64,000 nt of DNA from an uncultured Candidatus Saccharibacteria bacterium (lineage in GTDB: Bacteria > Patescibacteriota > Saccharimonadia > Saccharimonadales > 2-12-FULL-41-12): positions 118,101 through 182,100 of the forward strand of contig CAZYMH010000002.1 in NCBI GenBank assembly GCA_964648105.1, read 5' to 3'. Each line of letters starts with the position of its first letter. The stretch's first letter is position 1. Of the stretch, positions 20,147 through 38,314 are shown in pieces. The position numbers and the translations under genes are program-made. The notes beneath the pieces are model-generated. The model was not told where the DNA came from, searched no databases, and saw nothing but the letters and a program-made list of their open reading frames with translations.

Positions 20147-20659
20147 TTGGACGACGGAGATTACGAAGTCGATATTTTAGATGAGTCGGGCAAGTACGCC
20201 AATAAAAAGCTCAGGAAAAACATCATAAAAGGCCAAGACATCTACCACGCTGTGTACTGCGTTTTGACTACACCAAATCAAGAAATTATTCTGAACTTAA
20301 TTGCCAACAGATCAGACATGCCCAATTTGCACGCTGGGTCTTATGGAGCATCGGCGGCAACTATCAAACGAGTCGGCGAAACGAGCGAGCAGGCTATGCA
20401 GCGAGCCTTAGCAAATGAGCTTAAGATCGCTAGTTCAACACCTAAATTACTCTGGGAAAATATGATGGCAATAGATAATACTTATCGAAAAGTTGGCTTA
20501 TACCATTTAACTTCGGCGTTGCCCCAAAACTACAACAAACAAGATATCGAAGAACTAGTTGTGGTCACAAAAGCTGAACTTTTGGGTATACAAAAGCAAA
20601 CTCCGCATAAAATCACCCCTGTTTTAGGTATATTTATCGAGAAATATTTAAATATTTAG
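20147..20659 (+). CDS. Hypothetical protein, possibly degenerate Nudix/IDI-like fold
   Basis: TTG start. GETSEQAMQRALANELKI only loosely resembles a Nudix box. Confidence 0.3.
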   Translation: MDDGDYEVDILDESGKYANKKLRKNIIKGQDIYHAVYCVLTTPNQEIILNLIANRSDMPNLHAGSYGASAATIKRVGETSEQAMQRALANELKIASSTPKLLWENMMAIDNTYRKVGLYHLTSALPQNYNKQDIEELVVVTKAELLGIQKQTPHKITPVLGIFIEKYLNI

Positions 20660-21888
20660 CTGCGAGACTTTACGAAAGTTAAAGCTACGCCAGTTTTGCC
20701 ACCACGTCCTGTACGCCCAATCCGATGGACATAGTCGTCGTAGTTACTTGGTTCGTCGTAATTAATAACGTGCGTAACGTTAGGTATATCAAGTCCGCGA
20801 GCCGCTACATCGGTAGCCACTAAGACATTTAATTCGTTTGACTTAAATGATTTCAAGACTCGAGTTCGTTGGCTTTGGTTTTTGTTGCCATGAATGGCAT
20901 TGGAGGCAATGCCTGCTTTTAGCAATTTGTCTGATAGCCTTTGGACACCAAATTTGGTTTCGCCAAACACAATCACTTTCTCAAATTCTGACTGTTTGAG
21001 CATTTCGATCAGTTGATCTTTGCGATGATCATCATCTTGATAGGTAACTACATCTTGATAGATATAATCGTTGGTTTCGGCCTTCTTAACAGATATAGTT
21101 ACTGGACTAATCATAAAATCTTGAGTAAGTTTCTCGACGGCTGGACTCATTGTGGCACTAAAACACAGTGTTTGTCTGTCGGTCGGTAGCAACCCAACAA
21201 TTGAGCGGATATCATTAATAAAACCCATGTCGAGCATACGGTCGGCTTCGTCTAAAACAAGCGTATTTATGCTGTCTGTTTGCAGTAAATTACGATTTTG
21301 TAAATCTTTTAGTCGGCCAGGCGTACCAATAATCACCTGGACACCCCGCTTAAGTTGCTTGATTTGGCCACCGATGTTAACTCCACCTACACAAACTGCC
21401 GAATATAGCCTCATGCCAAAAGATAATCGCTTAAACTCAGCGTCAATTTGCTGAGCTAGCTCTCTGGTAGGGGCCATAATAAGAACTGTATTGTACTTTT
21501 TGTTGGTGTGCAGTTTTTCGATGATTGGCAGCAAAAACACAGCAGTTTTACCAGTACCAGTATTGGCCAAGCCAACAACATCTTTGCCTTGTAATACAAG
21601 CGGCAGAGCCTTATCTTGAATCGGGCTAGGTGTGACTAAGCCTGCTTGAGCCAAATTATCGGCTAAAGTTTGGTTAAAATTAAAGTCGGTAAACTTATGA
21701 TCAGGCGTATGCTCTGGTTCAGTTGATTTTTCTTTGATATTTTTGTTTACGAACAGCGAAGGGTTAATAAGCTGTTTGCGGCCGCGACGTTTGACAGGGC
21801 GACTGCGATTATTTCTAAAATTAGAATTATTTTTTGGCCCACTAAAAGACCGCTTTTTTGTATATGACATGAATACCTTTCGACACAT
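20656..21888 (-). CDS. DEAD-box ATP-dependent RNA helicase
   Basis: Q-motif region PSPIQ, motif I NTGTGKT, motif II VLDEAD, SAT, and motif VI HRIGRTGRGG. Basic N-terminal tail. Confidence 0.9.
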   Translation of the reverse strand: MCRKVFMSYTKKRSFSGPKNNSNFRNNRSRPVKRRGRKQLINPSLFVNKNIKEKSTEPEHTPDHKFTDFNFNQTLADNLAQAGLVTPSPIQDKALPLVLQGKDVVGLANTGTGKTAVFLLPIIEKLHTNKKYNTVLIMAPTRELAQQIDAEFKRLSFGMRLYSAVCVGGVNIGGQIKQLKRGVQVIIGTPGRLKDLQNRNLLQTDSINTLVLDEADRMLDMGFINDIRSIVGLLPTDRQTLCFSATMSPAVEKLTQDFMISPVTISVKKAETNDYIYQDVVTYQDDDHRKDQLIEMLKQSEFEKVIVFGETKFGVQRLSDKLLKAGIASNAIHGNKNQSQRTRVLKSFKSNELNVLVATDVAARGLDIPNVTHVINYDEPSNYDDYVHRIGRTGRGGKTGVALTFVKSRS

Positions 21889-22011
21889 CAGTTAAAGATG
21901 AATCGCTATTGCTATTAGTAGAGCATCCATCCGAATTTTACAAAAATTTAAGTAAAGAGACGTAAAATTAAATAAATTATAGCATACTTAAAATAATTTG
22001 TAAACTCGTGT

Positions 22012-23415
22012 TTATGCTATGTCGGGGTAGGGTAGGATTTTATTGTTATTTTTGCGGAGATATTGCCGCAATATTTTGTATGTATCGATATCGAATCCAT
22101 TAGAGATCCTCTCTATAAATGGTTCGAATTCGTGGTGCATGATACCCTCGATAATCCACTGATTGATTATTAGAGATTTGGTTTCGCTAATTTTGACCGA
22201 GATTTTTGATTTGAATGGCCAAGAATCAATCTTGGACCTCTCGAGGGCTAGCTCAACCCTTAAGTTGTAAGTTTCCTCAGGTTCTTTGCCTATACACGCC
22301 CCCTTACATAGTCCAAGTTGGTAACGGAAACACGCCGCCACGGCGTTTTCTAACCCCATAAGCTTAGGGCAAAGTGAAAAAGTTTTGGTTAGCTCTTCTA
22401 GCCGTTTTTTGGCCTTGGCCCTAGATGTATATACGCCGTAAATATTTGTTATATCGGTGTTGTCGTTTAAGTCTTGGCTTTCGACGGTGATCGTCGCGTA
22501 ATTATTTTCGTTGTTACTCTTTTTGAGGATTGATTGTTGGGTTTTTCGACGTAATTTCCTGTTGAGAAGTGGGCTAAGCTCCTTAACTTTGGCCGACTCC
22601 AGCAAAAGTGCCTCGATTTCGGTATCGGTTACCTCAAAATCGATTGAATAACTTCTTTGAGCTAACTTCATTTCTTTGATAATTCGTGTGTCACTGGTGA
22701 AGTGAGATTTTACGCGTTCCCGAATATTTACACTTTTGCCAATATAGAGCGGCGAGCCACGTTCATCATTAAAGATGTAAATCCCTGGTTGCGAAGGTAG
22801 ATTCTCGACAGTTGATTGATCTACATTAGGTGGGAGTGAGCGAGTTTTTAGTTGGTTTAATAGATTGTTTTCGAATGCATCGATACCATGTTCGCTAATT
22901 GCTAGTTGGGTAAAATCGTACATTGCTTTAGCATCGTCATATGCTCGGTGGCGACTACTGGTTTGTATGCCATGACGTTGGATAATTTTCTCTAAACTAT
23001 GACCTCTGTGATTGGGGTATAAAGCTCGCGACATACGGACAGTGCAAAATAATTTTGGTTTATAGTCATAGCCAGTTGCTTTGAAATGCGACTTCAAAAA
23101 AGAATAGTCAAATCGGACATTATGAGCTACGAATATTGCCCCACTAAACAAATCTTTTAATTTTTCGGAGATTTCGTCGAAATAGGGAGCATGAACCAAG
23201 TCGTTATTTGAGATACCTGTAAGCTGTTCTATCGAGGTGGGTATATTGCCACCTGGATTCACTAACGACTGATATATTTCAGTTATTTCGCCTTGTTCGA
23301 CTCTGATAACACCAATCTCAATAATTCGGCCCTGGATACCCATCTTGCCGTTCGTCTCTATATCAACAAATACCATCGGTGCATTATGCATGCCTAATAT
23401 TATAACGCTTAGCAA
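22012..23415 (-). CDS. DnaQ-like DEDD 3'-5' exonuclease fused to GIY-YIG (UvrC/Cho-like) nuclease domain
   Basis: N-terminus VFVDIETNG...FVAHNVRFDYSFL...HRAYDDA (Exo I-III). The middle has PGIYIFNDERGSPLYIGKSVNIRERVKSHF (GIY-YIG). Confidence 0.8.
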   Translation of the reverse strand: MLSVIILGMHNAPMVFVDIETNGKMGIQGRIIEIGVIRVEQGEITEIYQSLVNPGGNIPTSIEQLTGISNNDLVHAPYFDEISEKLKDLFSGAIFVAHNVRFDYSFLKSHFKATGYDYKPKLFCTVRMSRALYPNHRGHSLEKIIQRHGIQTSSRHRAYDDAKAMYDFTQLAISEHGIDAFENNLLNQLKTRSLPPNVDQSTVENLPSQPGIYIFNDERGSPLYIGKSVNIRERVKSHFTSDTRIIKEMKLAQRSYSIDFEVTDTEIEALLLESAKVKELSPLLNRKLRRKTQQSILKKSNNENNYATITVESQDLNDNTDITNIYGVYTSRAKAKKRLEELTKTFSLCPKLMGLENAVAACFRYQLGLCKGACIGKEPEETYNLRVELALERSKIDSWPFKSKISVKISETKSLIINQWIIEGIMHHEFEPFIERISNGFDIDTYKILRQYLRKNNNKILPYPDIA

Positions 23416-23518
23416 TTTATTAAAGCATTAGTAGATTATAAAAATAATCTTAATCTCTATATGCTATTGCATTGTGCCACAGCATTATTGATGAAATCAG
23501 AATCAACTATTCTATTGG

Positions 23519-23989
23519 TTAGGATAAAAATTCTTTAGGAAAATCTAGAAGAAATTCCTTAGTGGGGGTTTGTTCCCAGGTATTAAGTGCTTCATCAAAT
23601 ACGAATTGATATACCTCTTTGGTATTATCAAATATCAAATCACTTGGAAGTTCATCTAACTCAGCTTTGGTTAGCCATCGTAAATCTAATGATTCTTCCT
23701 CATGAGGATTCATTTCCGGATTATTTTTAGCCACGAATGCGTACTCAATATCGGTGTGAAAATGTTTAGACGGTATGTCATGAGTGTTCATCGCAAGCGG
23801 GTAAGGATGCTGGACGACTTTTGTCATCTTTCTAATGCGAGATTTTGGCTGCAATATGTCGAGTTGAGTTAATACATAACCCGATTCCTCAGTTATCTCA
23901 TGAGAGATTGCTTGCCAAGGAGTTTCTGATAGCTCAACGTGTCCTCCAATCGGCAAAAGAATATTCAGTTTCCGATGCATATGTAGCAA
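23519..23989 (-). CDS. Nudix hydrolase (5' end/start codon uncertain)
   Basis: Nudix box GGHVELSETPWQAISHEITEESGY. The frame stays open upstream to a stop at 24050-24052 and encodes a typical N-terminal strand (SSAYIVRVDGPEPRALL) without a canonical start codon. Confidence 0.7.
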   Translation of the reverse strand: MLHMHRKLNILLPIGGHVELSETPWQAISHEITEESGYVLTQLDILQPKSRIRKMTKVVQHPYPLAMNTHDIPSKHFHTDIEYAFVAKNNPEMNPHEEESLDLRWLTKAELDELPSDLIFDNTKEVYQFVFDEALNTWEQTPTKEFLLDFPKEFLS

Positions 23990-24131
23990 CGCTCTGGGCT
24001 CAGGACCATCTACTCTAACTATATATGCTGAACTGTAAGGTCGTGTTCGTTATCGTTAGTGTGAATGTGTGGCATGATTAAATTATAGCAATAAATAGCC
24101 GCTATTCTGGTGTCTACTAATTAAACCTGAT

Positions 24132-24138
24132 TGGTACA
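24132..24138. repeat. TGGTACA candidate junction core, left copy (element 2)
   Basis: The 7-mer is identical to the tRNA-Arg 3' end at 32964-32970. It lies in a 200-bp ORF-free gap. A chance match is not excluded. Confidence 0.35.
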
Positions 24139-24193
24139 GCATACTAGAGCAGGTTAGGTCATTGTTCCTTGCTTATCATAGGTCAAATGCCCT

Positions 24194-24415
24194 ATGAGCT
24201 ACCCACCCACCATACCTACCTATATAGTCTATACTCCTATCACAATAATATGGGAGCAGATTATGCGTACAATTACGGGCAAAGATTTAGAAGAATGGAA
24301 AGTGGCTTTTGCCAAGTCTGGTATTACATATGACACTGACGAAGAATACCAAGAGGCCATTTATAACTTAGTGGGCTACATTGACACACTTATACGAATG
24401 GATCAGCAGCAATAG
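24194..24415 (+). CDS. Small hypothetical protein (likely starts at the ATG at 24263)
   Basis: ORF track. The internal start MRTITGKDLEEW... is preceded by GGGAG. Confidence 0.3.
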   Translation: MSYPPTIPTYIVYTPITIIWEQIMRTITGKDLEEWKVAFAKSGITYDTDEEYQEAIYNLVGYIDTLIRMDQQQ

Positions 24416-24463
24416 GCGGTGGAAAAAGCGAAAATTAGCTAACCACCGTGCTTACCTATATAG

Positions 24464-24751
24464 TTACAAGCTTTGTTCTTGTAGGCTTATTTTTCCTAAT
24501 GCCCTGTTTCTTTCAGCAGAAAATCGCTCTGCTGCTTCACGAGTCCATACTAGATTCTCATCATCGACTATACCGTGCGGGACTGGCAAGCCACCGGCAT
24601 CTTTTAGCTGACTTACTCGTTGCTTAGAGACGCCGAGTATCTTCGCCAAGCCGCTTTGACTGACAAGTTCCACCGATTCAGTTGCTGGTTCTTGTGACAA
24701 ACGCAATTCGGACATTAAAAATATTCTCTGATTTAGTAACGTATTTTGCAA
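24464..24751 (-). CDS. Small HTH DNA-binding protein (excisionase/regulator-like)
   Basis: GLAKILGVSKQRVSQLKDAGGLPVP is a helix-turn-helix pattern. Confidence 0.5.
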   Translation of the reverse strand: MQNTLLNQRIFLMSELRLSQEPATESVELVSQSGLAKILGVSKQRVSQLKDAGGLPVPHGIVDDENLVWTREAAERFSAERNRALGKISLQEQSL

Positions 24752-24830
24752 GGATAAGCAAAAACAAATACATATTGCCGTTCATTAAATACCGCTTAGG
24801 TGGCTTATATAAGTCCCATTTGAACAACTC

Positions 24831-25550
24831 TTACTTAGGTTGAGTCTGCTCTAACTTAAATACTTCGTGATGCTTCAAGCCAGACTGCTTTTCTATTATT
24901 AAGGGAACTATTTGACTGTTGCTAAACTCTGCATTCGCAGCTGTAATTGAGTCTCTTGTAAACCACTGATACTCAAATTTATCATTATTTTTTGGCATGT
25001 ATTGTTCTGGCAACGAAAGCTTAAAGATATGTGAAATCGTATGATGTACAAATCCATCATCGTATGTAATTATAGCCTCGGCTATGGTTACAAGATTGGG
25101 CTTAGGAGTTTCTTCAGTAAATAAATCTTCTATGACTTTTCCTATATTCTCTAAGGCCGACCTTCCAGCATGATGTAAACCACCAGGCAGCATGTATTCG
25201 TTGAGGTGACTTTTCATACTTCCCGTTCGTTTTGCGACTAAAATTGAGTCGCCTGATAAAATAATGCATTGTACAAGTGGTCTTGGGAGTATTTCTTTCC
25301 CAAGTAAATTTGAACCTGTGTAATTTACCCAACGAGCACCCTTAGTTGTAAGCTGAAATCCATCTTGATGCTTTTCTATCAAACCCCTGTCAATAAGCTT
25401 ATTAGCGTGGTACATGAATAGACTATTTTCAACTCCGTCTTCTTTGAGTTCGCTAAAGCGTATAGGACTTTCGTTAGTGGCTAACTGTTGAATAATCTGT
25501 GCCTGTAAGAAGTGGTCAACGTACTGTTTGGTTAAAAAATCACTTGTCAT
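24831..25550 (-). CDS. Winged-helix domain fused to a degenerate Nudix-fold domain
   Basis: N-terminus IRFSELKEDGVENSLFMYHANKLIDRGLIEK..GFQLTTKGARW is MarR-like wHTH. The C-terminus LVQCIILSGDSILVAKR...LPGGLHHAGRSALENIGKVIEDLF is Nudix-like but lacks the catalytic REx2EE. Confidence 0.45.
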   Translation of the reverse strand: MTSDFLTKQYVDHFLQAQIIQQLATNESPIRFSELKEDGVENSLFMYHANKLIDRGLIEKHQDGFQLTTKGARWVNYTGSNLLGKEILPRPLVQCIILSGDSILVAKRTGSMKSHLNEYMLPGGLHHAGRSALENIGKVIEDLFTEETPKPNLVTIAEAIITYDDGFVHHTISHIFKLSLPEQYMPKNNDKFEYQWFTRDSITAANAEFSNSQIVPLIIEKQSGLKHHEVFKLEQTQPK

Positions 25551-25649
25551 TACATAGCATCATAGCAAAATTTGGTAAAAATGTTTTGACTGCTTTTGTA
25601 CGCCTCCTTAAGTACACTAGCTTCGTAACCTAAGGAAAGGAGTTACTAG

Positions 25650-25982
25650 ATGGAGAAACCAAACCTTAGCAGTGAGCAAGAAGCCCAAACAGTAGAAATA
25701 GTACAGAGACTTGATGGTCAGGATTTTGCGCTTACTCAAAGAATAGAGATACGGCGTAGGGAAGCTCCTCGCAAGATAGGACATGTTGCGATGTCACCAC
25801 GTACTGTAGCACCAGACTCTAGAGATGACTACCTGCCATCGGATGACTTTGACATGCTCCACTATACCGCAGGAGATAGCGATAGAGCATCTAGAACAAC
25901 TAGTAAGCCACGGAATCCTGTTGGCATGAGCGATAACTTCAGCCATGACTTTGATGCACCTTGGTATCAGGGGCGAATATAA
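25650..25982 (+). CDS. Hypothetical protein
   Basis: 110-aa ORF with a GGAAAGGAG RBS-like sequence upstream. No motif recognised. Confidence 0.4.
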   Translation: MEKPNLSSEQEAQTVEIVQRLDGQDFALTQRIEIRRREAPRKIGHVAMSPRTVAPDSRDDYLPSDDFDMLHYTAGDSDRASRTTSKPRNPVGMSDNFSHDFDAPWYQGRI

Positions 25983-26059
25983 GATGTTCAAAATACCCTC
26001 AAATGTATATGAGACCATAAACGTGATACAATACACGAGGATCAATAGGAAAAACAAAA

Positions 26060-27523
26060 ATGAGTGAAAAACCCCTAAATCCAGATGTTAACCTGCAATC
26101 TGATAAGATGGAGGTCTTTGAACGTGGTCGTGAGATTGTCCTTGCTGCACCTCAGTTATATGTAGATGTTGATGTGGAAGCAGACGGCATAGCTGGTCAC
26201 GGCTCCATGCTCTCAATAGGTGCTCAAAGTCCAACAGGCGAATCTTTTTACAGTGAAATACGGCCTATAACCGATGACTTCAAGCCTGGTAATCGAGAAT
26301 TCTGTGAACAACATGGATTACAGAGAGAAAGGTTACTACAAGAAGCTCCTGACGCAACTGAGGTAATGACCAAGTTCCACGCATGGGTAGCTGAGGTTTC
26401 CGAAAAGACTGGCAAACCACCAGTATTTACTGCTTTTAACGCTGCATTTGATTGGGCATTTGTTGACTTATACTTTATCAAGGCTGGCTATGAGAAGAAC
26501 CCTTTCGGAATCGCACCGTTTGACCTTAAATCCCTTGCTCTGCCTCTAACTGGTGAGTGGGACTGGACTCAAACGTCAAAGAATAAACTGCCCCAAATTA
26601 TTATCCCCGAAGGAGACTTTACGCATCATGCACTCGAAGATGCACAATACCAACAAAAGCTTCATTTCGGAATGGCTTCATTATTAGGAGCAAGGAATTA
26701 CCAAGAGAATATTTCTGGAGGTTCCCCTGATACAAATGAAGCTGTTGGCAAACGTGCACAAGAAGTCAACGAAACCTCTATCGAAGAAGAATCTACGAGA
26801 GAAACCGTAGCTAAAATTATTGAGCTTCTACAACGTAACTTTGATGATAGCTATGATGGTGAGACTGTTGGCGGGATACAAGCAAGAGGCGGGCAGTCTC
26901 CACGTATGCAAGCGTTGGAGCAAGAAAGAGACGGTTTAGTACATGAACTATTATCAAACGGAGATATTAACCTACTAGCCTCGGCTTTAGTTGAACAGGG
27001 CTATGGATCAGCCGTATTTAAGTATGGTGAAGATTTAGACATAGATTGGAACGGATTTGGACAAAAATTGTTAGATAATAATAAACCCGAAGAAGTTGCT
27101 AGGCACCTCGACAAGTTTCCGAATGTTGATAGGAATATGCTGGCTAATGCACTAGTGCAAAGAGGAGCTCCCCACTTAATTGTAAGTAATCTTGATGAGT
27201 TTCCAGATATAGACCAGAAAGTACTTACCGCAGGATTGTTAAAATCAGGGAGTGGGTTCACAGATAGTCTTAATGCCGTACTCGCTCGTGATATAGACCG
27301 AGAAGTGCTTGGACAAGACCTCATAAATGCGGGCTACGGAATAAATGTGGTTATGGACAGGCTTGACCAGTTTCCCGAATCTGTCCGAGTAGCTCTTGCT
27401 AAAAATCTAGCACGATACAAATTTGGACAAGATGTGCTTGCACACAACTCAGATAAATTTGTAGGTATAGATATTCAAGAACTTATACATACCGAGCCAA
27501 CAGAGAATACAACCAGCGTATAA
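26060..27523 (+). CDS. DEDD-type 3'-5' exonuclease domain with C-terminal helical-repeat region
   Basis: YVDVDVEADG (Exo I), FNAAFDWAFV (Exo II) and HHALEDAQ (Exo III). The C-terminal half has repeated L..AL...G......NLD.FP.ID units. Confidence 0.6.
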   Translation: MSEKPLNPDVNLQSDKMEVFERGREIVLAAPQLYVDVDVEADGIAGHGSMLSIGAQSPTGESFYSEIRPITDDFKPGNREFCEQHGLQRERLLQEAPDATEVMTKFHAWVAEVSEKTGKPPVFTAFNAAFDWAFVDLYFIKAGYEKNPFGIAPFDLKSLALPLTGEWDWTQTSKNKLPQIIIPEGDFTHHALEDAQYQQKLHFGMASLLGARNYQENISGGSPDTNEAVGKRAQEVNETSIEEESTRETVAKIIELLQRNFDDSYDGETVGGIQARGGQSPRMQALEQERDGLVHELLSNGDINLLASALVEQGYGSAVFKYGEDLDIDWNGFGQKLLDNNKPEEVARHLDKFPNVDRNMLANALVQRGAPHLIVSNLDEFPDIDQKVLTAGLLKSGSGFTDSLNAVLARDIDREVLGQDLINAGYGINVVMDRLDQFPESVRVALAKNLARYKFGQDVLAHNSDKFVGIDIQELIHTEPTENTTSV

Positions 27524-27744
27524 CCCTTTCCTCATCTTTTGCCCTAAAACCCTTCCTACGACCCCTGGAGAGTTCACAGAGGGCGTATAAAACCGTTCAT
27601 CTTTTATTGCTAAAAATTAGTGCGTAATGCTACACAAAATTTTTGGCCAGATTTCCGAACCCTAACGCCATTTTTCATTATTCACCAGCTAACAATTACG
27701 GAACACCACTTTTATTAAAATCATGTGCGAATCAACTAGTTAAT

Positions 27745-27975
27745 TTAGGAGAGTGTACCAAAATTAAATGACACTTTGTCACGGCACTCTATCGCATAAT
27801 TCATTTTGGTTGCAAAGACTACATTATTGTTCATGTGTCGGTAGTAAGTTGTTCTGCCAACCTTAGCCCATTTACAAGCGTCAGTTACGCTGTAGTTGTT
27901 CTTCAATGCGTCAGCTAACTTAACCATAGTCCTGATGTTCATTTTTGTGGGTCTTCCCACAGGATTGTTAAACAT
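27745..27975 (-). CDS. Small HTH protein (terminase-small/transposase-HTH-like)
   Basis: GRPTKMNIRTMVKLADALKNNYSVTDACKWAKVGRTTYYRH is an HTH pattern. Confidence 0.45.
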   Translation of the reverse strand: MFNNPVGRPTKMNIRTMVKLADALKNNYSVTDACKWAKVGRTTYYRHMNNNVVFATKMNYAIECRDKVSFNFGTLS

Positions 27976-28110
27976 AATAAAACTCCTTTTGTTTTTTTGT
28001 CTTAACTCTCTATATCTATTATCTCAAATCGGGCTTTTTAGGAGCTTCATGCAAACAAATTCTCAACTGCTATGGTTTGTACTAAGACAATGCTCCATAA
28101 TAATTAACGT

Positions 28111-29199
28111 ATGGACACAATACCTTACTGGGACGATGAAACACTGCTTATTTACGGGATACTTGTTGGCTTCATCTCACTCAATCCTCAAGAGGCCATT
28201 AAGTCACTTAATTTGGTCGTGAATCAGGAAAGCAATGTCTTAACCAGTATCCATGTGTTAGCAGCACTAGAGGGTAAACAGAAGATTAAAACAGGTGAGG
28301 TCTGGCTTAACTTCAGAAAATATCTTCATCAGCTTGGTGATGCAAATGATCCAGAAGCGAATAAGCTGGACGAAGTAATTGCTAAAGTTCGTAAGATTGC
28401 CGATTGGGAAGCTGATGACAGAGAGGTGCTTAGGTCAAGCTTTAGTGAACTGCTTCAACAACAAGATATTCTGACGGAATCACTTCACGGTTGCCTCGAA
28501 TTTAATATCAAGGTGCTTGACAAGTCGTGGATACGGCAGCTCGTTCGAGATTATTTAGAGCACTACCGCAATGACAAACTATTTACACCCACCGCACCTA
28601 CCTATATACCTTACGGCGAGCAATACGTAGCTATCACAAACCTACTCGAAGATTCAAAATATCCTGCAAAAATCACACGATTCCATGTACCAGACAATGT
28701 GAGGTTCTTTGAATCGCTTTATGACTTGGTAGATAAAGAAAAGATTGTTCTAACAGAAATGAGCAACCCGAATAACTCGGTCAATGACCCTAGATTCGGC
28801 CTAATTGTAGGTTCAGATAAAAAGAACCCCTTACGCTCAGTAGACAGAAGCTATGTAAGTGTGGAAGCTAAGAACTATGACCCAGCCTCTGGTATTTTGA
28901 CAGTCGTTGGCCAACAGATACATATTATTGGCCAAGTAAACAGATTAGGCAAAAGCAAAGCGAGTAAGCAATCTAAACTCATGCGTGAGTTGTTCTATGA
29001 GTATAAATTTCCCAAAGCAGCAGCCTTACGACACATCTACCCCTATAAAGGCGAGCGTTATCCACAGGATATTATTAAAAAAGCACGTGAATTAACTGCT
29101 GAAATTAACAGAAAAGTTGCTAAAAAAATAGGAGTAGACGACTTAATAATTTCCGATGACTGGAAGTTCGAAATCAACCCTGATTATCTGAAAGATTGA
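28111..29199 (+). CDS. Hypothetical protein (362 aa)
   Basis: Long ORF with normal composition. No motif recognised. Confidence 0.45.
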   Translation: MDTIPYWDDETLLIYGILVGFISLNPQEAIKSLNLVVNQESNVLTSIHVLAALEGKQKIKTGEVWLNFRKYLHQLGDANDPEANKLDEVIAKVRKIADWEADDREVLRSSFSELLQQQDILTESLHGCLEFNIKVLDKSWIRQLVRDYLEHYRNDKLFTPTAPTYIPYGEQYVAITNLLEDSKYPAKITRFHVPDNVRFFESLYDLVDKEKIVLTEMSNPNNSVNDPRFGLIVGSDKKNPLRSVDRSYVSVEAKNYDPASGILTVVGQQIHIIGQVNRLGKSKASKQSKLMRELFYEYKFPKAAALRHIYPYKGERYPQDIIKKARELTAEINRKVAKKIGVDDLIISDDWKFEINPDYLKD

Positions 29200-29276
29200 C
29201 AGAAAACTTTTCTGCCAGACCATACGATAGGCTTAGCTCGTAACAATAAATTACGAGCATTTTTTATGTTCAGAAG

Positions 29277-29489
29277 GTGGTGAAAATCATGGCCGAGAAA
29301 GACAGCCAAACACATATATTAAATCTAACAAGCGAGGAGCTTAATGCAGTCAGCTTTGGCATCCAATGGGGTTATGCCATAGCAGCAAATTCTCCGACAG
29401 TGCGTGAATGGAAGCAAAAACGCAAAGTCATTGAAAGCGTACTCAAGAAGATAAAACTCCTGCAAAAGGAGGGTCGCAAAAATGGATAA
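29277..29489 (+). CDS. Small hypothetical protein
   Basis: ORF track. Overlaps the next ORF by 8 nt (operon-like). Confidence 0.35.
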   Translation: MVKIMAEKDSQTHILNLTSEELNAVSFGIQWGYAIAANSPTVREWKQKRKVIESVLKKIKLLQKEGRKNG

Positions 29490-29757
29490 ACCAATTGAAG
29501 CTCAAGGTATAACTACTTTTGACGTATACGACTTTGGACTAGCTGCCGTGCTGCTGCACTTGGGCTATGAACTAGTAGACATGCACACAAAAGATGATTG
29601 TAAGTGCCCTGTATTCCATTTCGAAGATACTCCAACCATAGAACAAGACGCAGAAACTTATATAAGCGGCAATCTGTCGGTAAACGCTAAACATTATTTC
29701 ATGGCATATGAGCACATCTTAGACACCTTGTACGGAGGTTCTCATGACGAGGATTAG
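29482..29757 (+). CDS. Small protein, possibly DUF5659-like
   Basis: FDVYDFGLAAVLLHLGYELVDM......FHFEDT pattern recalled from phage-associated DUF5659 proteins. Confidence 0.35.
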   Translation: MDKPIEAQGITTFDVYDFGLAAVLLHLGYELVDMHTKDDCKCPVFHFEDTPTIEQDAETYISGNLSVNAKHYFMAYEHILDTLYGGSHDED

Positions 29758-29914
29758 TGAAGACAGTATCACCAAACTCCAAGCGATTCTAAAGCAGCAT
29801 TTTAACTTGGACTACGACAACGAACAGGCACAAGCTGCTGGCCGTGCAATCCTGCGTCTAGTCGGTCTAAAACTGCAACAGCAACTAAGCGAGGAATACG
29901 AAAATGAATCCTGA
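29744..29914 (+). CDS. Small hypothetical protein (56 aa, below ORF-track cutoff)
   Basis: The ATG at 29744 overlaps the previous gene, and the stop overlaps the ATG at 29904 of the next. Translation is MTRISEDSITKLQAILKQHFNLDYDNEQAQAAGRAILRLVGLKLQQQLSEEYENES. Confidence 0.3.
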   Translation: MTRISEDSITKLQAILKQHFNLDYDNEQAQAAGRAILRLVGLKLQQQLSEEYENES

Positions 29915-31172
29915 AACCGAAACAACGAAAGACGAACTGCGTAAGGCACTAAACGGCATTGACCAGAAGCTCTACCCAGAAATGTCCAAGCAACAATTAC
30001 TAGATGTATTGGACATGACGATTAAAGAAGATGACGTATGTAAGCTCATTACGTTTTACTGTATGCTCTCGGCCTACACCCGTGATTCCCAAATAAACGT
30101 TAGCTTCAATGCGCCAAGTGCATCTGGCAAGACCTACATAACTACTGAAATTGCCAAGCTATTCCCAGATGAAGACAAGATTGAATCTAGTGGTGCCAGC
30201 CCTACGTCCTTCTACCATACTGAAGGCATTGAAGATGAGGAACGTAACGCTAAGATAGTGTCGTTTGAACGTAAGATATTATTGTTCTACGAACAGAGTA
30301 ATCCAGTCCTACAGACTAAACTACGCCCCATACTGTCACACGATAGCTGGGAGATTAACTATCGCATTACTAACAAAAACAAGTCTGGCAAAAACCATAC
30401 CGAGCTCATTATTCTGGAAGGCTTTCCTGCAACAGTATTTTGTTCAGCAGGACTACGCCTAGACGAGCAAGAAGCAACCAGAGCAATACTGCTAAGTCCC
30501 GAACCAAGCCAAGCAAAACTACGTGCAGCGATTGAGTTGCAGAACAAGCGTGGTAAAGACGAGAAGGCTTACTATGAGTGGCTAGAATCACAGCCAGAAC
30601 GTGTAGACCTAAAGGAGCGTATTCTGGCGATCCGTGAGGCGTATGTAGAGCACATTAAGTTACCCGACAATGATGCAATCAAAGAGCGTTTCTATGGCAG
30701 CTTTCCAAAACTCAAGCAACGTCATACCCGTGACTTCACACACCTACAGCAGCTTATTAAGGTCATTGCATTACTGAACCTATGGCATCGTAAGCAAACT
30801 GATGGTTCTATTGTGGCTAACCAGTCTGACATTGACCAAGGATTTGAGCTATGGGAGCAACTCGCTCAAAGCCAAAACTTAGGAATACCACCGACAGCCA
30901 TCCACTTTTACAAGACATATATTCTGCCTACTTTCTACGATTTAGTAGCAGCTCATCCGAACACAGACCCATACAGCATAGGCATAAGCCGTGAGCAACT
31001 TGCTCGTGAGTATTTGTACCTAGAAAAGACCATTTTGCCCGACACTTATTTGCGTAAGGAGGTTCTGCCACAGCTTGAGAATGGTGGCCTAGTAATTCAG
31101 AAAGCACCTGAGTTCGGTGATAAACGCACCCGCCTAATCTACCCCCAGTGGTTCCCAGAGCAAACTAAATAG
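29904..31172 (+). CDS. P-loop NTPase, putative replication/maintenance protein of element 2
   Basis: Walker A-like NAPSASGKTYITTE. A hydrophobic strand ending in an acidic residue (KILLFYEQS) is a possible Walker B. Confidence 0.45.
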   Translation: MNPETETTKDELRKALNGIDQKLYPEMSKQQLLDVLDMTIKEDDVCKLITFYCMLSAYTRDSQINVSFNAPSASGKTYITTEIAKLFPDEDKIESSGASPTSFYHTEGIEDEERNAKIVSFERKILLFYEQSNPVLQTKLRPILSHDSWEINYRITNKNKSGKNHTELIILEGFPATVFCSAGLRLDEQEATRAILLSPEPSQAKLRAAIELQNKRGKDEKAYYEWLESQPERVDLKERILAIREAYVEHIKLPDNDAIKERFYGSFPKLKQRHTRDFTHLQQLIKVIALLNLWHRKQTDGSIVANQSDIDQGFELWEQLAQSQNLGIPPTAIHFYKTYILPTFYDLVAAHPNTDPYSIGISREQLAREYLYLEKTILPDTYLRKEVLPQLENGGLVIQKAPEFGDKRTRLIYPQWFPEQTK

Positions 31173-31370
31173 GTTCACCCTGTTGGTGCACCATTTACAG
31201 GCTCTTTTTAACAAACTATAATAGTAATGTTTCCGCCCAACAGTATTTACGCTAGTCGTATTTTTGTTTCTGCTCGTCAAGGGCAGCATGGTGCAGAAAG
31301 AAGCGATTAGCGACTGGAAGCGGAAACAGCCATGCTGTCCTTTTTGATGACAGCGAGAAGGAATAAAACA

Positions 31371-33029
31371 ATGAGTGAATATCTAAACGATAAAACTAAT
31401 AAACTACGCTACATACTGTACGTGCGTAAGTCTACTGAGGACGAAGAAAAGCAAGTATTGTCTAAAGACGCACAAAAAGATAAGTGTGAAGAACAATTCA
31501 AAAATCTGAACATTGTAAAAGTCTTAGATGAAAGTAAGAGTGCATTTGAGCCAGATAAGCGTGATGTCTTTAAGCAAGTTCTAGAGATGTTAGATAACAA
31601 CGAGGCTGACGCTATTATGGCGTGGCACCCTGACCGCCTCTCAAGGAATGAAGTAGACGCTTCATCTATTACATGGCGTATTCGTAAAGGTACGATTAAA
31701 GACCTCAAGTTCGCCAGCTTTAGCTTTGATAACTCACCCGAAGGCGTGATGATGTTACAAATGACTATGAGCCAATCACAATACTTCTCAGCCAAACTAA
31801 GTAAAGACGTGAAGCGTGGCAACGCACAAAAGCGTAAAACTGGTGGTATAACTGGTATCGCCCCAGAAGGTTACTTAAATGACCGTGTAAACAAAACTGT
31901 CTATAAAGACCCAGAACGCTTTCCCTTACTGCGTCAAGCGGTAGATTTAATGCTGACTGGCGAGTACAGCGTCCAGCAAATCTTAAACATCATGAATAAT
32001 GAGTGGGGCTATCGCACCGTTAAACGTAAAAAGGTCGGCGGTAAGCCGATTGGTCGTTCATCACTCTACTATATGTTCCGTAACGTCCGTTACGCAGGTT
32101 GGGTGCCTGATCCTTATGATGAAGACAAATTGTATCCAGCAGATTTCCCAGCTTTAATGACCCAAGAAGAATACGATAAAATCCAACTCCTACTAGGTCG
32201 TCATGGCAATAAGCGTTTCGCAACTCGTAAACAGTTCGTTTTACGTGGCTTTATACGCTGTGGCGAGTGTGGTTGTATGATTACCGCCCAAAGCAAGGAA
32301 CGTACTAACAAACAGGGTGTGACTCACGTAAACACTTACTATCACTGTACAGGTAAACGCCCATGTAACCAGAAACAATACGGGTATAAAAAAGAAGCTG
32401 AGCTGTTTCAAGAGTGCGTAGATGAGCTGAATAATTGGGAGCTAATCCCAGAACTATATGAGTGGAGCATGGACGCTATTAGTCAAATGGCTCAAGCTGA
32501 CATTCCAGAGCGTAAGAATGTAGAAACTATGCAGGAACAAGCTATCAAGGGCTTAAAAGACCAATTAGACACTCTGTTAGACATGTCTACTCGTAAACTC
32601 GTAGACGAAGATACCTTTATTGAAAAATCCGCCGAGCTCAAGGCTGAATTAAAAGAGCTGCATAAGCAACAGGCTACCAGTAATGAAAACACTGAAAGCT
32701 GGTACGACTATATGACAGACTTAATAAGTAAGTTCATGAATGCTAACGCTAAGTTCGTAAACGGCGATATTGCTGATAAGAAGGAAATCCTGCTGGCATT
32801 AGGTCAGAACCCAGTGCTATTAGACGGGAAACTCCAAATAACACCTTATGAGTGGTTGCTACCCTTGCGTGATAATACAAAACATTTTGTAGCTCAATTA
32901 AATGAGGTTAGAACAATGTCTCAACAGATGAAAAAGAGCCTTCTTGAGGCTCTCCGTCTAGAATGGTACACGCGGCAGGAGTCGAACCTACGACCTTCAG
33001 TACCGCAAACTGACGCTCTATCCAGCTGA
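31371..33029 (+). CDS. Large serine recombinase (integrase of element 2); last ~20 codons lie in tRNA-Arg antisense sequence
   Basis: RYILYVRKSTEDEEKQ...DAIMAWHPDRLSRN resolvase-type N-terminus, a recombinase domain, a zinc ribbon (CGECGCMITA...YYHCTGKRPC) and a coiled coil. AGAAGGA RBS before the ATG at 31371. Confidence 0.88.
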   Translation: MSEYLNDKTNKLRYILYVRKSTEDEEKQVLSKDAQKDKCEEQFKNLNIVKVLDESKSAFEPDKRDVFKQVLEMLDNNEADAIMAWHPDRLSRNEVDASSITWRIRKGTIKDLKFASFSFDNSPEGVMMLQMTMSQSQYFSAKLSKDVKRGNAQKRKTGGITGIAPEGYLNDRVNKTVYKDPERFPLLRQAVDLMLTGEYSVQQILNIMNNEWGYRTVKRKKVGGKPIGRSSLYYMFRNVRYAGWVPDPYDEDKLYPADFPALMTQEEYDKIQLLLGRHGNKRFATRKQFVLRGFIRCGECGCMITAQSKERTNKQGVTHVNTYYHCTGKRPCNQKQYGYKKEAELFQECVDELNNWELIPELYEWSMDAISQMAQADIPERKNVETMQEQAIKGLKDQLDTLLDMSTRKLVDEDTFIEKSAELKAELKELHKQQATSNENTESWYDYMTDLISKFMNANAKFVNGDIADKKEILLALGQNPVLLDGKLQITPYEWLLPLRDNTKHFVAQLNEVRTMSQQMKKSLLEALRLEWYTRQESNLRPSVPQTDALSS

Positions 33030-33040
33030 GCTACGCGTGC
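32964..33040 (-). tRNA. tRNA-Arg (anticodon read as GCG), CCA encoded
   Basis: The reverse complement GCACGCGTAGCTCAGCTGGATAGAGCG-TCAGT-TTGCGGT-ACTGA-AGGTC-GTAGGTTCGACTCCTGC-CGCGTGT-ACCA forms a 77-nt cloverleaf. Confidence 0.85.
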
Positions 33041-35368: not shown

Positions 35369-35788
35369 TTACTGGGCAGTTTTGCCGATGATAAACCTGA
35401 CGATAAACTGAGCAAAGGCGACAATCAATAGACCAACTAATGCATATATAATGGTGTTCTTGGCCGAAGCGACTCTGTTGGAATCACCACCAGAGGTGAC
35501 GTACTTAAAGCCACCGAAGATAATCATAATTACAGCTGCAATTCCAACAATTACAGAAACTACATTAACAATGGTTTCTACAAGTTTATCTAAAGTCTTG
35601 GCCGGGGTTCCAGTTCCAGTACCTTTACAATTGGTTCCTGGATTATCGAAGCTCAAATTAGCCCCTTTACATAACTCTGTTTGAGTATCTTGAGCAGCTA
35701 CAGTTCCAACGCCACTAAAAGCGACTGGCACAGCCAAAAGCGATAGAACTAACAGGCTTGATAAAATATAGTTTTTTAATCTTTTCAT
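35369..35788 (-). CDS. T4SS pilin-like (VirB2/TrbC-type) small secreted membrane protein, paralog 1
   Basis: Signal peptide, a variable region with 2 Cys, then TM-FGGFKYVTSGGDSNRVASAKNTIIYALVGLLIVAFAQFIVRF-TM. Confidence 0.65.
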   Translation of the reverse strand: MKRLKNYILSSLLVLSLLAVPVAFSGVGTVAAQDTQTELCKGANLSFDNPGTNCKGTGTGTPAKTLDKLVETIVNVVSVIVGIAAVIMIIFGGFKYVTSGGDSNRVASAKNTIIYALVGLLIVAFAQFIVRFIIGKTAQ

Positions 35789-35810
35789 TATATTTAGAAT
35801 TTAAGTTTTA

Positions 35811-36239
35811 CTAATTAGCTAGGCCAGTGCTTTTGCCTAGGACAAACTTGACAATAAACTGAGCGAGAGCAACGATTACTAATCCAATGACGGCATAAAC
35901 AATGGTGTTTTTGGCTGAAGTAACTCTGTTGGAGTCACCGCTAGAGGTGATGTACTTGAAACCGCCGAAAATAATCATAATTACAGCGACAATTGCCACA
36001 ATAACAGATACAATATTGACTATTTTGGTAACTAAATCATTAACTCTACCTTGAGCATCATTGCCATTGGCGTCGGCACAGGTTTTGTCACCGCCAAATT
36101 TGAGGTCAGAACCTTCACATAGCGAACCTTGAATGTCGGCCTGAGCAAAAACCGTACTAGTAGCAAAAGCCACTGGAACTGCTGCCATACTCAGTACAGC
36201 AACTAGTGCAATTAATGAATTTTTTAATCTTTTTATCAT
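35811..36239 (-). CDS. T4SS pilin-like protein, paralog 2
   Basis: Same architecture as paralog 1. The start is taken at the internal ATG (MIKRLKNS...). Long near-identical DNA stretches are shared with paralog 3. Confidence 0.65.
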   Translation of the reverse strand: MIKRLKNSLIALVAVLSMAAVPVAFATSTVFAQADIQGSLCEGSDLKFGGDKTCADANGNDAQGRVNDLVTKIVNIVSVIVAIVAVIMIIFGGFKYITSSGDSNRVTSAKNTIVYAVIGLVIVALAQFIVKFVLGKSTGLAN

Positions 36240-36301
36240 AGAATTTCCTTTATTAATGTTTTTTATTTTATAACACGAATTACTTATAACTTTCAAGTAC
36301 T

Positions 36302-36733
36302 TTAGGAGGTCAGGCCAGTGGCTTTGCCCAAGACAAACTTGACGATAAACTGAGCGAGAGCAACGATAATCAAACCAATAATCGCGTAAAGAATGGTGTT
36401 TTTGGCCGAAGTGATATTGTTGGAATCACCACCAGAGGTAATGTACTTGAAACCGCCGAAAATAATCATAATTACGGCGACAACAGCCACTATAACAGAG
36501 ATAATGTTTACAATTTGGCTAATCATTTCGTTCATACTTTCTTGAGGTGAGCGACCAGTACCTGATGAACAAGTTCGGTCACCACCAATCCGAAGATCGG
36601 CTCCTTCACACAAAGATCCTTTTATATCTGGACCAGTGGCTTGAGCGTTAGCAGAACCAATAACTGTAACTGGAACAAGTAGTGGGGAGAGTAAGCTAAT
36701 TGCTAAAAATAATGATTTTAGTTTATTAATCAT
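36302..36733 (-). CDS. T4SS pilin-like protein, paralog 3
   Basis: Signal peptide, a Cys pair and the FGGFKYITSGGDSNNITSAKNTILYAIIGLIIVALAQFIVKF core. Confidence 0.65.
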   Translation of the reverse strand: MINKLKSLFLAISLLSPLLVPVTVIGSANAQATGPDIKGSLCEGADLRIGGDRTCSSGTGRSPQESMNEMISQIVNIISVIVAVVAVIMIIFGGFKYITSGGDSNNITSAKNTILYAIIGLIIVALAQFIVKFVLGKATGLTS

Positions 36734-36777
36734 ATATTACCTTTCTATAAATAATTAAATTAATTATACCAGATTAC

Positions 36778-37167
36778 TTATGTTTTGCCGATTACAAACC
36801 TAACAATAAATTGAGCAAATGCCACAATAACTAAGCCAACTACAGCATAAATTATGCCCTTACGAGCATTAGCCACGGCAGTTGCGTCACCACCAGATGT
36901 GACCAGCCTAAAACCGTTGATGATAATTACAATTACAGCAGCAATGCCCACCACAACAGTAAGTATATTGATAATTGCTTTTATTAACCCTTCTACAGAA
37001 CCACCAGCACTAGAATCACACTTACCATCCTTGGTTAAATCAGCTCCACTACACGCTTCTCGCGTAGCACCGTCGAATGGACCTGCATAAACCAAAGAAG
37101 GGCTTGCAATACCAACTAAGCCGACCGTTAAGAATATTGATGCAATAAATAATTTTATTTTGTTCAT
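36778..37167 (-). CDS. T4SS pilin-like protein, paralog 4
   Basis: Start taken at the internal ATG (MNKIKLF...). Core is INGFRLVTSGGDATAVANARKGIIYAVVGLVIVAFAQFIVRF. Confidence 0.6.
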   Translation of the reverse strand: MNKIKLFIASIFLTVGLVGIASPSLVYAGPFDGATREACSGADLTKDGKCDSSAGGSVEGLIKAIINILTVVVGIAAVIVIIINGFRLVTSGGDATAVANARKGIIYAVVGLVIVAFAQFIVRFVIGKT

Positions 37168-37174
37168 GAAGTTA

Positions 37175-37579
37175 TTATAGCTTAGATAAAACAAGCCTAA
37201 CAATAGCCTGAGCTATCGCTGCAATAAATACCCCTATGACAGCATAAATAATCATTTCACGAGCTTTGGAGACTTCTTGAGGGTTACTACCAGAAGTGAT
37301 AAATTTGAGGCCAGCAAAAATTATAGTGAAGATCGCTGCTATACCAACAATTATGGTTAAAATGTTGATGATTTTGGTAATTATGCCATCTTTGCCGTAC
37401 AGTGGGTTGGTGTTGCCAGCCGAGTCTTGACAAGCAGCTGGGTTTTTGGCCTTAGCCTGTGGATCGTTACAAACATAATTGTTGCCAAATAAGTCAGCCG
37501 CGTAAGAGGCGTGAGCCAAAAAGGTAAATGGGGCAATAATAGCCATGCAGAGACATAATGAAATAATTAATCTACGCAC
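37175..37579 (-). CDS. T4SS pilin-like protein, paralog 5
   Basis: Signal peptide, a Cys pair and the core FAGLKFITSGSNPQEVSKAREMIIYAVIGVFIAAIAQAIVRL. Confidence 0.6.
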   Translation of the reverse strand: MRRLIISLCLCMAIIAPFTFLAHASYAADLFGNNYVCNDPQAKAKNPAACQDSAGNTNPLYGKDGIITKIINILTIIVGIAAIFTIIFAGLKFITSGSNPQEVSKAREMIIYAVIGVFIAAIAQAIVRLVLSKL

Positions 37580-37583
37580 TAGC

Positions 37584-37883
37584 TTAGACCCTTCCTAACA
37601 CAAAGTTGACTACTGCGGCGGCGGTAACAATTATCACTAGCCCAAGCAGAGAATAAATAATTGCTTTTTTGGCCCGCGAAATTTTGTCGGGGTCACCCTC
37701 GTTGGAGGCTAAGTTAATCGCTGCCAAAATAATCACCAAAACTGCCAAAGTGCCTGCAATCCCAAAAACGATATTTAGCAGACCTTCGATTGACTGAGTA
37801 TTGCCACCAACTTTAGGGATACCAATATCATCGGCTTTTGGGGCAACTACTTGAGCTAAGGTATAGAGTGAGTTTAGTGTCAT
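37584..37883 (-). CDS. T4SS pilin-like protein, paralog 6 (short, no Cys pair)
   Basis: Two-TM core with ASNEGDPDKISRAKKAIIYSLLGLVII. It lacks an obvious signal peptide. Confidence 0.5.
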   Translation of the reverse strand: MTLNSLYTLAQVVAPKADDIGIPKVGGNTQSIEGLLNIVFGIAGTLAVLVIILAAINLASNEGDPDKISRAKKAIIYSLLGLVIIVTAAAVVNFVLGRV

Positions 37884-37891
37884 ATTTTGCC

Positions 37892-38314
37892 TCAGACGCT
37901 CTTACCAATAAAGTTCACTACCGCTACGGCCGCGATTGCAATAAAAAGTCCGATTAAGGCATCAATAACTGCGGTTTTGGCCTGAGTTATTTTGTCAGAA
38001 TTACCTCTAGAGGAAATATATTTGAAGCCACCGAAAATTAAGTATGCAATAGCCGCTAGTACGGCAACTCGAAGTAACATCTCGATAACCGCCAGCAATA
38101 TTAGCCATAGGTCGCTAATGTGATCTAGGGACGGGGCGCAACCACCGACTTCTCTTTGGCCTTCCAAATATTTGTACCAGGTAGGGAAGCCAAAAAAACC
38201 GTTACTTTCATCGAGAGTACATTTCTGAATTGCAGCAAAATTATCTAGCATATTGACGACTAGTAGTTTAGTGTTGATTAGACTAAGAGTAAAGTTATCG
38301 ATCATGTTTGTCAT
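37892..38314 (-). CDS. T4SS pilin-like protein, paralog 7
   Basis: Divergent N-terminus with 2 Cys. Core is FGGFKYISSRGNSDKITQAKTAVIDALIGLFIAIAAVAVVNF. Confidence 0.55.
   Translation of the reverse strand: MTNMIDNFTLSLINTKLLVVNMLDNFAAIQKCTLDESNGFFGFPTWYKYLEGQREVGGCAPSLDHISDLWLILLAVIEMLLRVAVLAAIAYLIFGGFKYISSRGNSDKITQAKTAVIDALIGLFIAIAAVAVVNFIGKSV

Follow-up and report, generated by a model that had tools for sequence, protein, structure and literature searches.

Gene content of the element

We have analysed a window of 64,000 nucleotides (G000:C2:118101-182100, the whole stretch of DNA to which the coordinates below refer) from an uncultured Candidatus Saccharibacteria bacterium of the order Saccharimonadales, a member of the candidate phyla radiation (CPR) whose assembly comprises 889 kb in 17 contigs with a GC content of ca. 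40%. By comparison of sequences, the region 24132-32963 (8,832 bp), at the CCA end of a tRNA-Arg(gcg) gene, appears to be an intact integrative element, a reading to which we assign a probability of roughly 85%. It consists of a conserved module (a helix-turn-helix (HTH) regulator, small proteins, an MCM-like helicase and a large serine recombinase, LSR) together with a cargo slot of variable content adjacent to its left end. The comparison set was made up of 400 genomes of the same order, and six loci with a sister LSR were retrieved and compared with the window by blastn. Protein families were searched in Pfam, PHROGs and NCBIfam, and defence-type genes with PADLOC.

The gene next to the tRNA codes for the LSR (31332..33029, + strand, 565 aa; Resolvase, Recombinase and Zn_ribbon_recom). 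The PF00239 match (3e-21) covers residues 28-172, with the motif YVRKSTEDE in the translation, that to PF07508 (2.5e-5, 24.9 bits) is above the cut-off of 21.1 and that to PF13408 (6.9e-5, 23.6 bits) falls just below the cut-off of 25.3. PHROG 95 (“integrase”) is matched at 6e-67, and among the sequences of the PDB only the catalytic domain found matches. The gene overlaps the tRNA-Arg in antisense by 66 nt. An original prediction, made by a model from the letters of the window, had already seen the LSR end inside this tRNA; its start at 31371 has to be corrected, being the internal Met14 used by gene callers in an open reading frame (ORF) that opens at 31332.

Upstream of the LSR is a 422-aa protein (29904..31172, +) that we read, from its AlphaFold2 (AF2) model and Foldseek comparisons, as a putative MCM-like AAA+ replicative helicase without the N-terminal domain of the cellular enzymes. 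The model has a predicted local distance difference test score (pLDDT) of 91 and a predicted template modelling score (pTM) of 0.90, and its top matches in the PDB were all MCM2-7 or archaeal MCM proteins (E values down to 1e-10, probability 1.0, TMq 0.41-0.49). In the Walker A motif, G75 and K76 did not vary among 31 sequences, and the C-terminus of the model has two short strands after the helices. The protein starts ca. 60 residues before the P-loop, without the N-terminal OB-fold/zinc domain of cellular MCM, and relatives carry primase domains at that position instead. The family is large (1,384 representative clusters at E<=0.001), and an N-terminal primase domain was found in 8 of the 12 longer homologues scanned (Toprim in three, AEP or PrimPol in three, RepB primase in one and only PriCT in another). 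The pairing of helicase and LSR is kept even at two loci (L056, L057) with LSRs only 34-55% identical. As a lead only, a language-model look-up of the helicase pointed to clusters labelled as a Methanothermobacter plasmid protein family.

Three small genes precede the helicase (29277..29914, +), coding for proteins of 70, 91 and 56 aa that are, respectively, 92-95%, 41-78% and 84-98% identical in the sisters. The 91-aa protein belongs to DUF5659 (Pfam, 8e-8). The 56-aa ORF is that at 29744-29914, singled out in the original prediction. Before them lies an element-specific 362-aa protein (28111..29199, +) with only 26 homologues and no family, for which the AF2 model was poor (pLDDT 58) and an atlas look-up returned only unnamed CPR clusters; G211 and G130 have a different gene of 266-269 aa in its place. 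Divergent from this replication operon is a 76-aa HTH protein (27745..27975, -), 60-95% identical in all five sisters with the region and matched by PHROG and NCBIfam over its HTH regions only, which is a candidate regulator or directionality factor. The regions common to the sister elements are the first 100-290 bp, this HTH gene with its divergent intergenic region, and the run from the 362-aa gene to the LSR.

The content of the cargo slot (24464..27523) is present in none of the sister elements, and 24417-27515 is unique to the window among all the elements compared. It contains an HTH protein (24464-24751, -), a winged-helix plus Nudix-like protein (24831-25550, -), a 110-aa ORF (25650-25982) and a DEDDh exonuclease (26060-27523) that has a long extension at its C-terminus and matches the PADLOC model “Effector, Exonuclease” at 3e-36; a Pfam match to DUF7347 (7e-7) also falls in the slot. 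All the genes originally listed for the element are there: two HTH proteins, a winged-helix protein, the DUF5659 and the P-loop protein. Between the left end and the slot lies a 50-aa gene (24263..24415, +), without family match, 86-90% identical in G211 and G223 and still 56-61% identical in elements of the Gly and Lys types (L068, L073).

The cargo of the sisters is very different. G211 carries a CAP-domain protein, T5orf172-FtsK-gamma, Mrr and DUF4352, and G130 carries AbiEii, a PEP-utilising enzyme, a histidine phosphatase and a class I (Trp/Tyr) tRNA synthetase; at its locus (L051) the synthetase and the 866-aa PEP-utilising enzyme (7008-8006 and 8623-11223) stand beside the AbiEii-like gene. 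In G141 and G223 the cargo consists of purM-, purQ-, purSL- and purN-like genes (L052, 3949-9381, and the homologous stretch of L054), which are 93-95% identical between these two genomes of different families. Judging from these sequences, purine-synthesis genes appear to be transported by this vehicle within a phylum noted for missing pathways of this type.

Delimitation of the ends

At the right end, the core TGGTACA (32964..32970, +) is the complement of the tRNA 3' end (...UGUACCA), and the same seven bases at 24132..24138 (+) form the proposed left end. A repeat this short is found 13 times in the window (5.1 expected), once more on the same strand inside the element (25408), and therefore the 7-mer alone is no evidence for the ends, as the original prediction had itself cautioned. 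A direct-repeat search between 19.5 and 34.5 kb found no repeat of the tRNA beyond it.

The support comes from the sister elements. We could read nine left ends, i.e., the window and eight sisters (L063, L065 and L067 included), and the right ends of eight sisters (six printed junctions plus L055 and L059). In all eight sister left ends the homology to the window starts at TGGTACA (TGGTGCA in L063) after unrelated flanks, and the elements begin TGGTACAGCAT(A/T)(C/A)TAGAGCAGGTTAGG. The blastn alignments stop at 24127-24131 in four of the five loci that reach there; in the fifth, G130, the limit is 24105, a weak similarity extending 26 nt left of the core into the flank of the window. All eight right ends read ...GTCTAGAA and then directly TGGT(A/G)C of the tRNA. 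Because elements lying in different flanks begin and stop at the same bases, we consider the ends confirmed, and with them the size of ca. 8.8 kb originally proposed; the relatives, which might have revealed other boundaries, delimit the same ones.

The seventh base of the core is always A at attL and at attR matches that of the tRNA (A, G or C), so that in G130, G223, L055 and L059 an A on the left faces a G or C on the right. The crossover must therefore lie within TGGTAC, which corresponds in the tRNA to the first base of the acceptor stem, the discriminator and the CCA. The reconstructed attP has an imperfect dyad, TCTAGAATGGT-AC-AGCATACTAGA, with matches at 9 of 11 positions (read by eye). 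The symmetry of TCTAG and CTAGA around the core, suggested earlier, is thus present, with a right-hand copy that varies among the left ends (TATAGA in four of the nine, ATCGA in L063). With the core of the tRNA-Tyr variants, the dyad centre would be GC, which is palindromic.

A conserved motif, ACCCACC-N-ACCTATATAGT (24200..24228, +), follows the left end, with further copies at 24436-24464 and 28582-28610. The first copy is kept in all nine left ends, just after the stop codon of the recombinase tail described below, and is possibly a promoter or operator. Promoter-like sites as such are not in excess (14 vs. 18.9 expected in shuffles).

Sister elements and horizontal spread

Genes 86-90% identical to the LSR were found in 8 of the 400 genomes, belonging to eight other families (G211, G180, G243, G130, G141, G133, G223 and G028), and the DNA of the sister elements is 80-85% identical to the window over 1.3-5.0 kb. 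The carriers are all Candidatus Saccharibacteria or Saccharimonadales. By comparison, the ComF proteins of genomes of the same genus are only 49-58% identical. Recombinases so much more similar than the backbone indicate that the element moves horizontally and that the transfer was recent. The target is not always the same tRNA: Arg(gcg) in the window, G211, G180 and G141, Arg(tcg) in G130, L055 and L059, Arg(tct) in G223 and Tyr(gta) in G243.

More distant relatives of the LSR (E<=1e-50) are present in 81 of the 400 genomes. We looked at 21 further loci with LSRs 37-64% identical to that of the window (one locus, L031, from the unpublished genome G056, was excluded), and in 17 of them the 3' end of a tRNA overlaps that of the LSR gene on the opposite strand; two of the remaining four end at a contig edge. 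The tRNAs concerned are Gly, Trp, Tyr, Arg, Asn, Lys and Gln, and L057 sits at a tRNA-Asp.

The same layout recurs in the window itself, as originally noted, in another element (element 1; 2979-19707, 16.7 kb) whose 641-aa LSR (17877-19802) has a frame that runs through a whole tRNA-Ser(tga). Element 1 is bounded by TGGCGG at 2979, where the GC content rises from ca. 38 to 67%, and at 19708, the CCA end of that tRNA. With ca. 67% GC in a 40% GC genome, its composition is foreign to Saccharibacteria. The element studied here has 41.7% GC, exactly as its contig, and its initial description as AT-rich holds with respect to element 1 and fails with respect to the host. Six short contigs of the assembly (C8, C10, C12, C14, C16 and C17) also have 50-67% GC, the rest being at 36-42%; none of the six has a megablast match to element 1.

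The attachment site inside the recombinase gene

The element itself encodes the LSR only up to 32963. No stop codon interrupts the frame ahead of the core, and what comes after the WY of the core in the integrated state, 19 codons (residues 547-565, TRQESNLRPSVPQTDALSS), is antisense tRNA-Arg. When the two ends are joined as a circle, the frame goes from ...RLE-WY into 19 codons of the left end, SILEQVRSLFLAYHRSNAL*, with the stop at 24195-24197, i.e., the stretch 24138..24197 (+) would be both the P' arm of attP and the end of the gene. As attP lies within the LSR frame, integration replaces the last 19 codons with antisense tRNA, and the circular form would encode an LSR whose conserved tail has 19 residues (SILEQVRSLFLAY...).

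There are two ways to look at this overlap. One, which we take seriously while giving it somewhat short of even odds, is that it is incidental: the left end would be kept as a DNA site, and the tail would have no regulatory role. The frame merely lacks a stop before the core, and ca. 25 nt after the core would be constrained anyway for recombinase binding. The tails of the integrated state look accidental, differing with the tRNA and being sometimes only 1-3 residues long. Furthermore, a motif GTTAGRAC occurs as DNA on either side of the core, in the tail and, in direct orientation, ca. 55 nt before the core. This motif also counts against a functional tail, the conservation of which could come in part from constraint on the DNA of the P' arm, and the sample of tails is small and made up of related sequences.

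Several features argue against a purely incidental overlap and make the displaced tail look protein-coding and conserved. All nine left ends place its stop at one and the same codon. The variable sites are distributed as 9/3/12 over codon positions 1/2/3, the second being the least variable, and synonymous changes are enriched in this frame only (126:125 synonymous to nonsynonymous pairwise differences, vs. 56:190 and 29:219 in the other two frames, both of which contain stops). The peptide motif is maintained with other codons in other subfamilies, with left-end tails of the same kind in two Gly-type elements (WCTVLAEVRTALLTYSIA*), an Asn-type (WLPVVMEVRTALIAYAL*) and a Trp-type relative (WQGVLVQVRTLLTTVTV*); these distant left ends were placed by the limits of pairwise homology together with the 6-nt tRNA core. 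Finally, in 4 of 30 homologues of the LSR C-terminus (P0187, P0188, P0189 and P0191) a native tail directly follows the W of the core (e.g., ...LRLEWYTILDQVRSLYLL...), and a cluster mate, P0207, is a fifth case; the remaining database homologues either finish with tRNA-antisense residues or reach a stop a short way into the tRNA. Five proteins that run uninterrupted from the LSR into the tail imply that the attP form of the gene exists on real contigs.

The alternative to an incidental overlap is that this widespread clade keeps attP in its own frame, the free circle alone giving the full enzyme and the physical state of the element setting the stability or directionality of the LSR. We offer this as a tentative idea, possible but still doubtful. 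By analogy with systems discussed below, the tail may act as a degron or form a helix with an effect on directionality, and a change in stability or directionality with the integration state would be the most likely consequence of the swap. Several native tails end in small non-polar residues (-NAL, -SIA, -YAL, -SAA, -PAA), and a search of the whole assembly with ARAGORN found no tmRNA. Integration also separates the LSR from the co-oriented 50-aa gene (24263-24415), of which it is the direct upstream neighbour on the circle. Insertion at the CCA end would then do two things at once, swap a C-terminal helix or degron and uncouple this downstream gene from the LSR transcript.

One locus of the Asn type (L072, in G250) has two left-end-like sites, at 2486 and 3494, 1 kb apart upstream of a single LSR; both have a TGGCTC core and an EVRT-type tail, and a tandem or nested insertion is possible.

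The target tRNA and the flanking DNA

The tRNA-Arg(gcg) (32964..33040, -) is intact on the attB side, and an alignment with five relatives includes a compensated pair in the acceptor stem. The same gene lacks an LSR beside the same membrane-protein gene in all five loci that could be read, in G001, G005 and G004 (rearranged) of the same genus and in G015 and G009 of the same family, which also share the neighbouring tRNA-Ser(gct), ComF and Hsp20 genes. The integrated LSR is transcribed head-on against the tRNA gene. Inside its ORF, on the tRNA strand, there is a hairpin with a U-run (32930..32954, -; 8-bp centroid stem, -11.4 kcal/mol, z -1.56) that may have taken over as terminator of the tRNA-Arg. 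It is not listed by the terminator scan and is weak or absent in G211, G180 and G130. A resemblance of the 3' flank of this tRNA in G005 to the right end of the element was considered as homology and discarded, as it is best read as two terminator hairpins.

To the left of the element, the original prediction had placed a backbone Nudix gene. This does not hold, since in G001, G005 and G015 the distance from an 86-aa gene to the tRNA-Arg is 0.6-1.2 kb, occupied by unrelated pilin-like or carbamoyltransferase-like ORFs (translations read by eye), against 12.8 kb in the window. The block 20147..24131, with genes for a Nudix-like protein, a DEAD-box helicase, a DnaQ-GIY-YIG protein and a Nudix protein, is missing there and is therefore accessory too, probably older island material. 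It was found next to a tRNA in none of the genomes examined, and the DnaQ-GIY-YIG gene occurs elsewhere only in genus g2, in other contexts.

The absence of the whole block could also mean that the mobile unit is larger, extending over ca. 20147-32963 (12.8 kb) with TGGTACAGCAT... as an internal site. The DEAD-box helicase would fit in this picture, as a homologue 73-74% identical lies near the left end of the G223 element and another accompanies a left-end remnant in G031. On the other hand, the flanks in G211, G180, G130 (26 nt excepted), G141, L063, L065 and L067 are unrelated to the block and to each other, the core is repeated exactly at the two ends of the smaller unit, and no second left-end-like site was found in the window. 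We consider such a larger unit very improbable and retain the 8.8 kb element.

The DEAD-box gene (20656-21888), the only one in the window, is only 46-49% identical to its counterparts in four of five genomes of the same genus and 62% in G005; G223 and G031, with the closer homologues, belong to other families. In G223 the gene (L054, 9957-11284) is 0.1 kb outside the left end of the sister element, and in G031 the gene and the degenerate left-end remnant (L018, 4668-5891 and 74-117) are in the same orientation on one contig. It looks like flanking DNA that was carried along, or older cargo. On the other side of the tRNA, beside Hsp20, there is a tandem array of paralogous membrane proteins of 140-160 aa with the motif GGFKY..SGGD..R (35369-38100), kept in all the relatives read (L006-L011).

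Mobility of the element

We propose that integration took place by LSR-driven recombination between an attP reading ...GTCTAGAA-TGGTAC-AGCATACTAGAG... and the six terminal bases of tRNA-Arg(gcg). The tRNA stays whole, with the element directly 3' of it and the LSR gene running antisense into it. The 19-residue tail would have been moved 8.8 kb away in this step, tRNA-antisense residues taking its place. An excised circle would replicate like a plasmid with the MCM-like helicase, and movement between cells would take place by DNA uptake or with machinery borrowed from another element. Saccharibacteria are naturally competent (PMC10187176), and conjugation-type type IV secretion systems have been described in Patescibacteria (PMC12102498), so that both routes are possible.

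As originally stated, the element has neither capsid nor transfer genes: among its proteins, Pfam, PHROGs and NCBIfam yielded no capsid, portal, terminase, tail or lysis gene and no relaxase, coupling protein or type IV secretion gene. A small element that has a regulator and a replication module beside its integrase, but no structural genes, could be a phage satellite, similar to phage-inducible chromosomal islands, packaged and transferred by a helper phage of Saccharibacteria. Two of its HTH proteins even match PHROGs annotated as “terminase small subunit”. However, these matches span the HTH segments only, the large terminase and a gene for redirecting capsid size are also missing from the three family searches, and neither the attP junction nor the related recombinase P0188 has a match in viral_contigs. 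A satellite therefore seems unlikely to us; the helicase module of its own points to an integrative, self-replicating cargo element rather than to a satellite or mobilisable island.

Several observations weigh against an intact and mobile element. No available genome shares the left flank, and no empty site joining 24131 to 32964 was found; this join is derived from the sister elements. No circular junction was found either: the 20-nt attP junction is absent from viral_contigs and metagenome_contigs, from the 400 genomes (one mismatch allowed) and from the assembly of the window itself, and three sequencing runs that contain the stretch, which may be the source of the window, have only the integrated form; no RNA run is listed among those with the stretch. 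The runs were searched as assembled contigs, and contigs drop rare variants, so the missing junction is not evidence of immobility. In addition, no origin, primase or initiator was identified in the element, searches of GenBank phages and PLSDB plasmids gave no match to the helicase, and replication would follow from the fold and the domain fusions only. The copies of G141 and G223 have a broken LSR and no helicase, indicating that many copies are dead.

This decay, together with the lack of any detected excised form, would be expected if the element in the window were also a fixed remnant, an immobile and domesticated island. We find this quite unlikely because its LSR, its helicase and both ends are intact, and because one run from another study (X4) contains pieces 100% identical to the cargo (24552-26340). 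One X4 contig of 178 nt matches 24131-24261 exactly after 47 letters unlike the flank of the window; departing precisely at 24131, it would represent a different flank or a circle. An apparent joint from 32996 to 26528 in the runs was rejected as a chance match of 18-24 nt. All in all, we favour the intact integrative element.

Comparison with known systems

The closest known kind appears to be that of the tycheposons of Prochlorococcus and other marine bacteria, small elements found at the proximal end of tRNA-seeded islands that combine variable cargo with modules for integration and for replication (primases, helicases) (10.1101/2020.12.28.424599). In the islands described there, older material and foreign flanks pile up distal to the tRNA, and an LSR is carried by 27 of 937 integrase-carrying elements, tycheposons and cryptic ones together (10.1101/2020.12.28.424599). 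Insertion at a tRNA end, a helicase for replication and variable cargo between modules are shared with our element, which could be called tycheposon-like, and the accessory block 20147-24131, distal to the tRNA, also fits the model. The differences are considerable. We found no primase in the window element, which has an MCM-like helicase. The flank of tycheposons, as given in that account, is a partial tRNA of ca. 40 nt, and here only 6-7 nt at the CCA end are shared; the recombinase is in all cases an LSR, the element lives in a CPR epibiont and attP lies inside the recombinase ORF.

An attachment site within a coding frame has precedents. Archaeal integrases of the SSV type have attP inside the integrase gene, which is partitioned by integration into a tRNA, and small integrative plasmids of archaea with MCM-type helicases exist. 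Those are tyrosine recombinases, split into two large gene parts, whereas here 19 codons are exchanged. In the mycobacteriophages BPs and Brujita, attP is located in the gene of the repressor, which loses an ssrA-like degradation tag on integration; in this system (Broussard et al., 2013) the integrase, a tyrosine recombinase acting on a 35-bp common core, also bears such a tag (PMC9262239). As in our case, attP is in a coding frame, attB overlaps a tRNA and the C-terminus is replaced. The gene that is split there is, by that account, the repressor, and here it is the serine recombinase itself; a role of the tail as a degron would be by analogy.

Classical serine integrases share with our LSR the Resolvase, Recombinase and zinc ribbon domains and probably also a short core with imperfect dyad arms. 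Those of phiC31, Bxb1 and A118 insert into protein-coding genes, and this clade of Saccharibacteria differs in using the CCA end of many tRNAs. In mycobacteriophages, as far as the source covers them, tRNA attB sites are used by tyrosine integrases only (PMC9262239). A literature search on the theme, which covered neither supplements nor subscription journals, found no description of an element of this type.

Implications

The mobile elements of CPR bacteria are, to our knowledge, almost uncharacterised. We have here a type of element whose att sites are now exactly defined, as are its cargo slot and its conserved module for integration and replication, and which belongs to a family that is common in the order and crosses family boundaries. 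The att sites and the LSR make up a candidate tool for site-specific integration in Saccharibacteria. The tail swap, if true, would be the serine-recombinase counterpart of integration-dependent immunity and, if functional, a new route by which a serine integrase could sense whether its element is integrated. The sister copies would bring purM, purQ, purSL, purN and a class I tRNA synthetase into pathway-poor organisms, i.e., the same vehicles appear to carry purine-synthesis and aminoacyl-tRNA synthetase genes between families of epibionts with reduced genomes.

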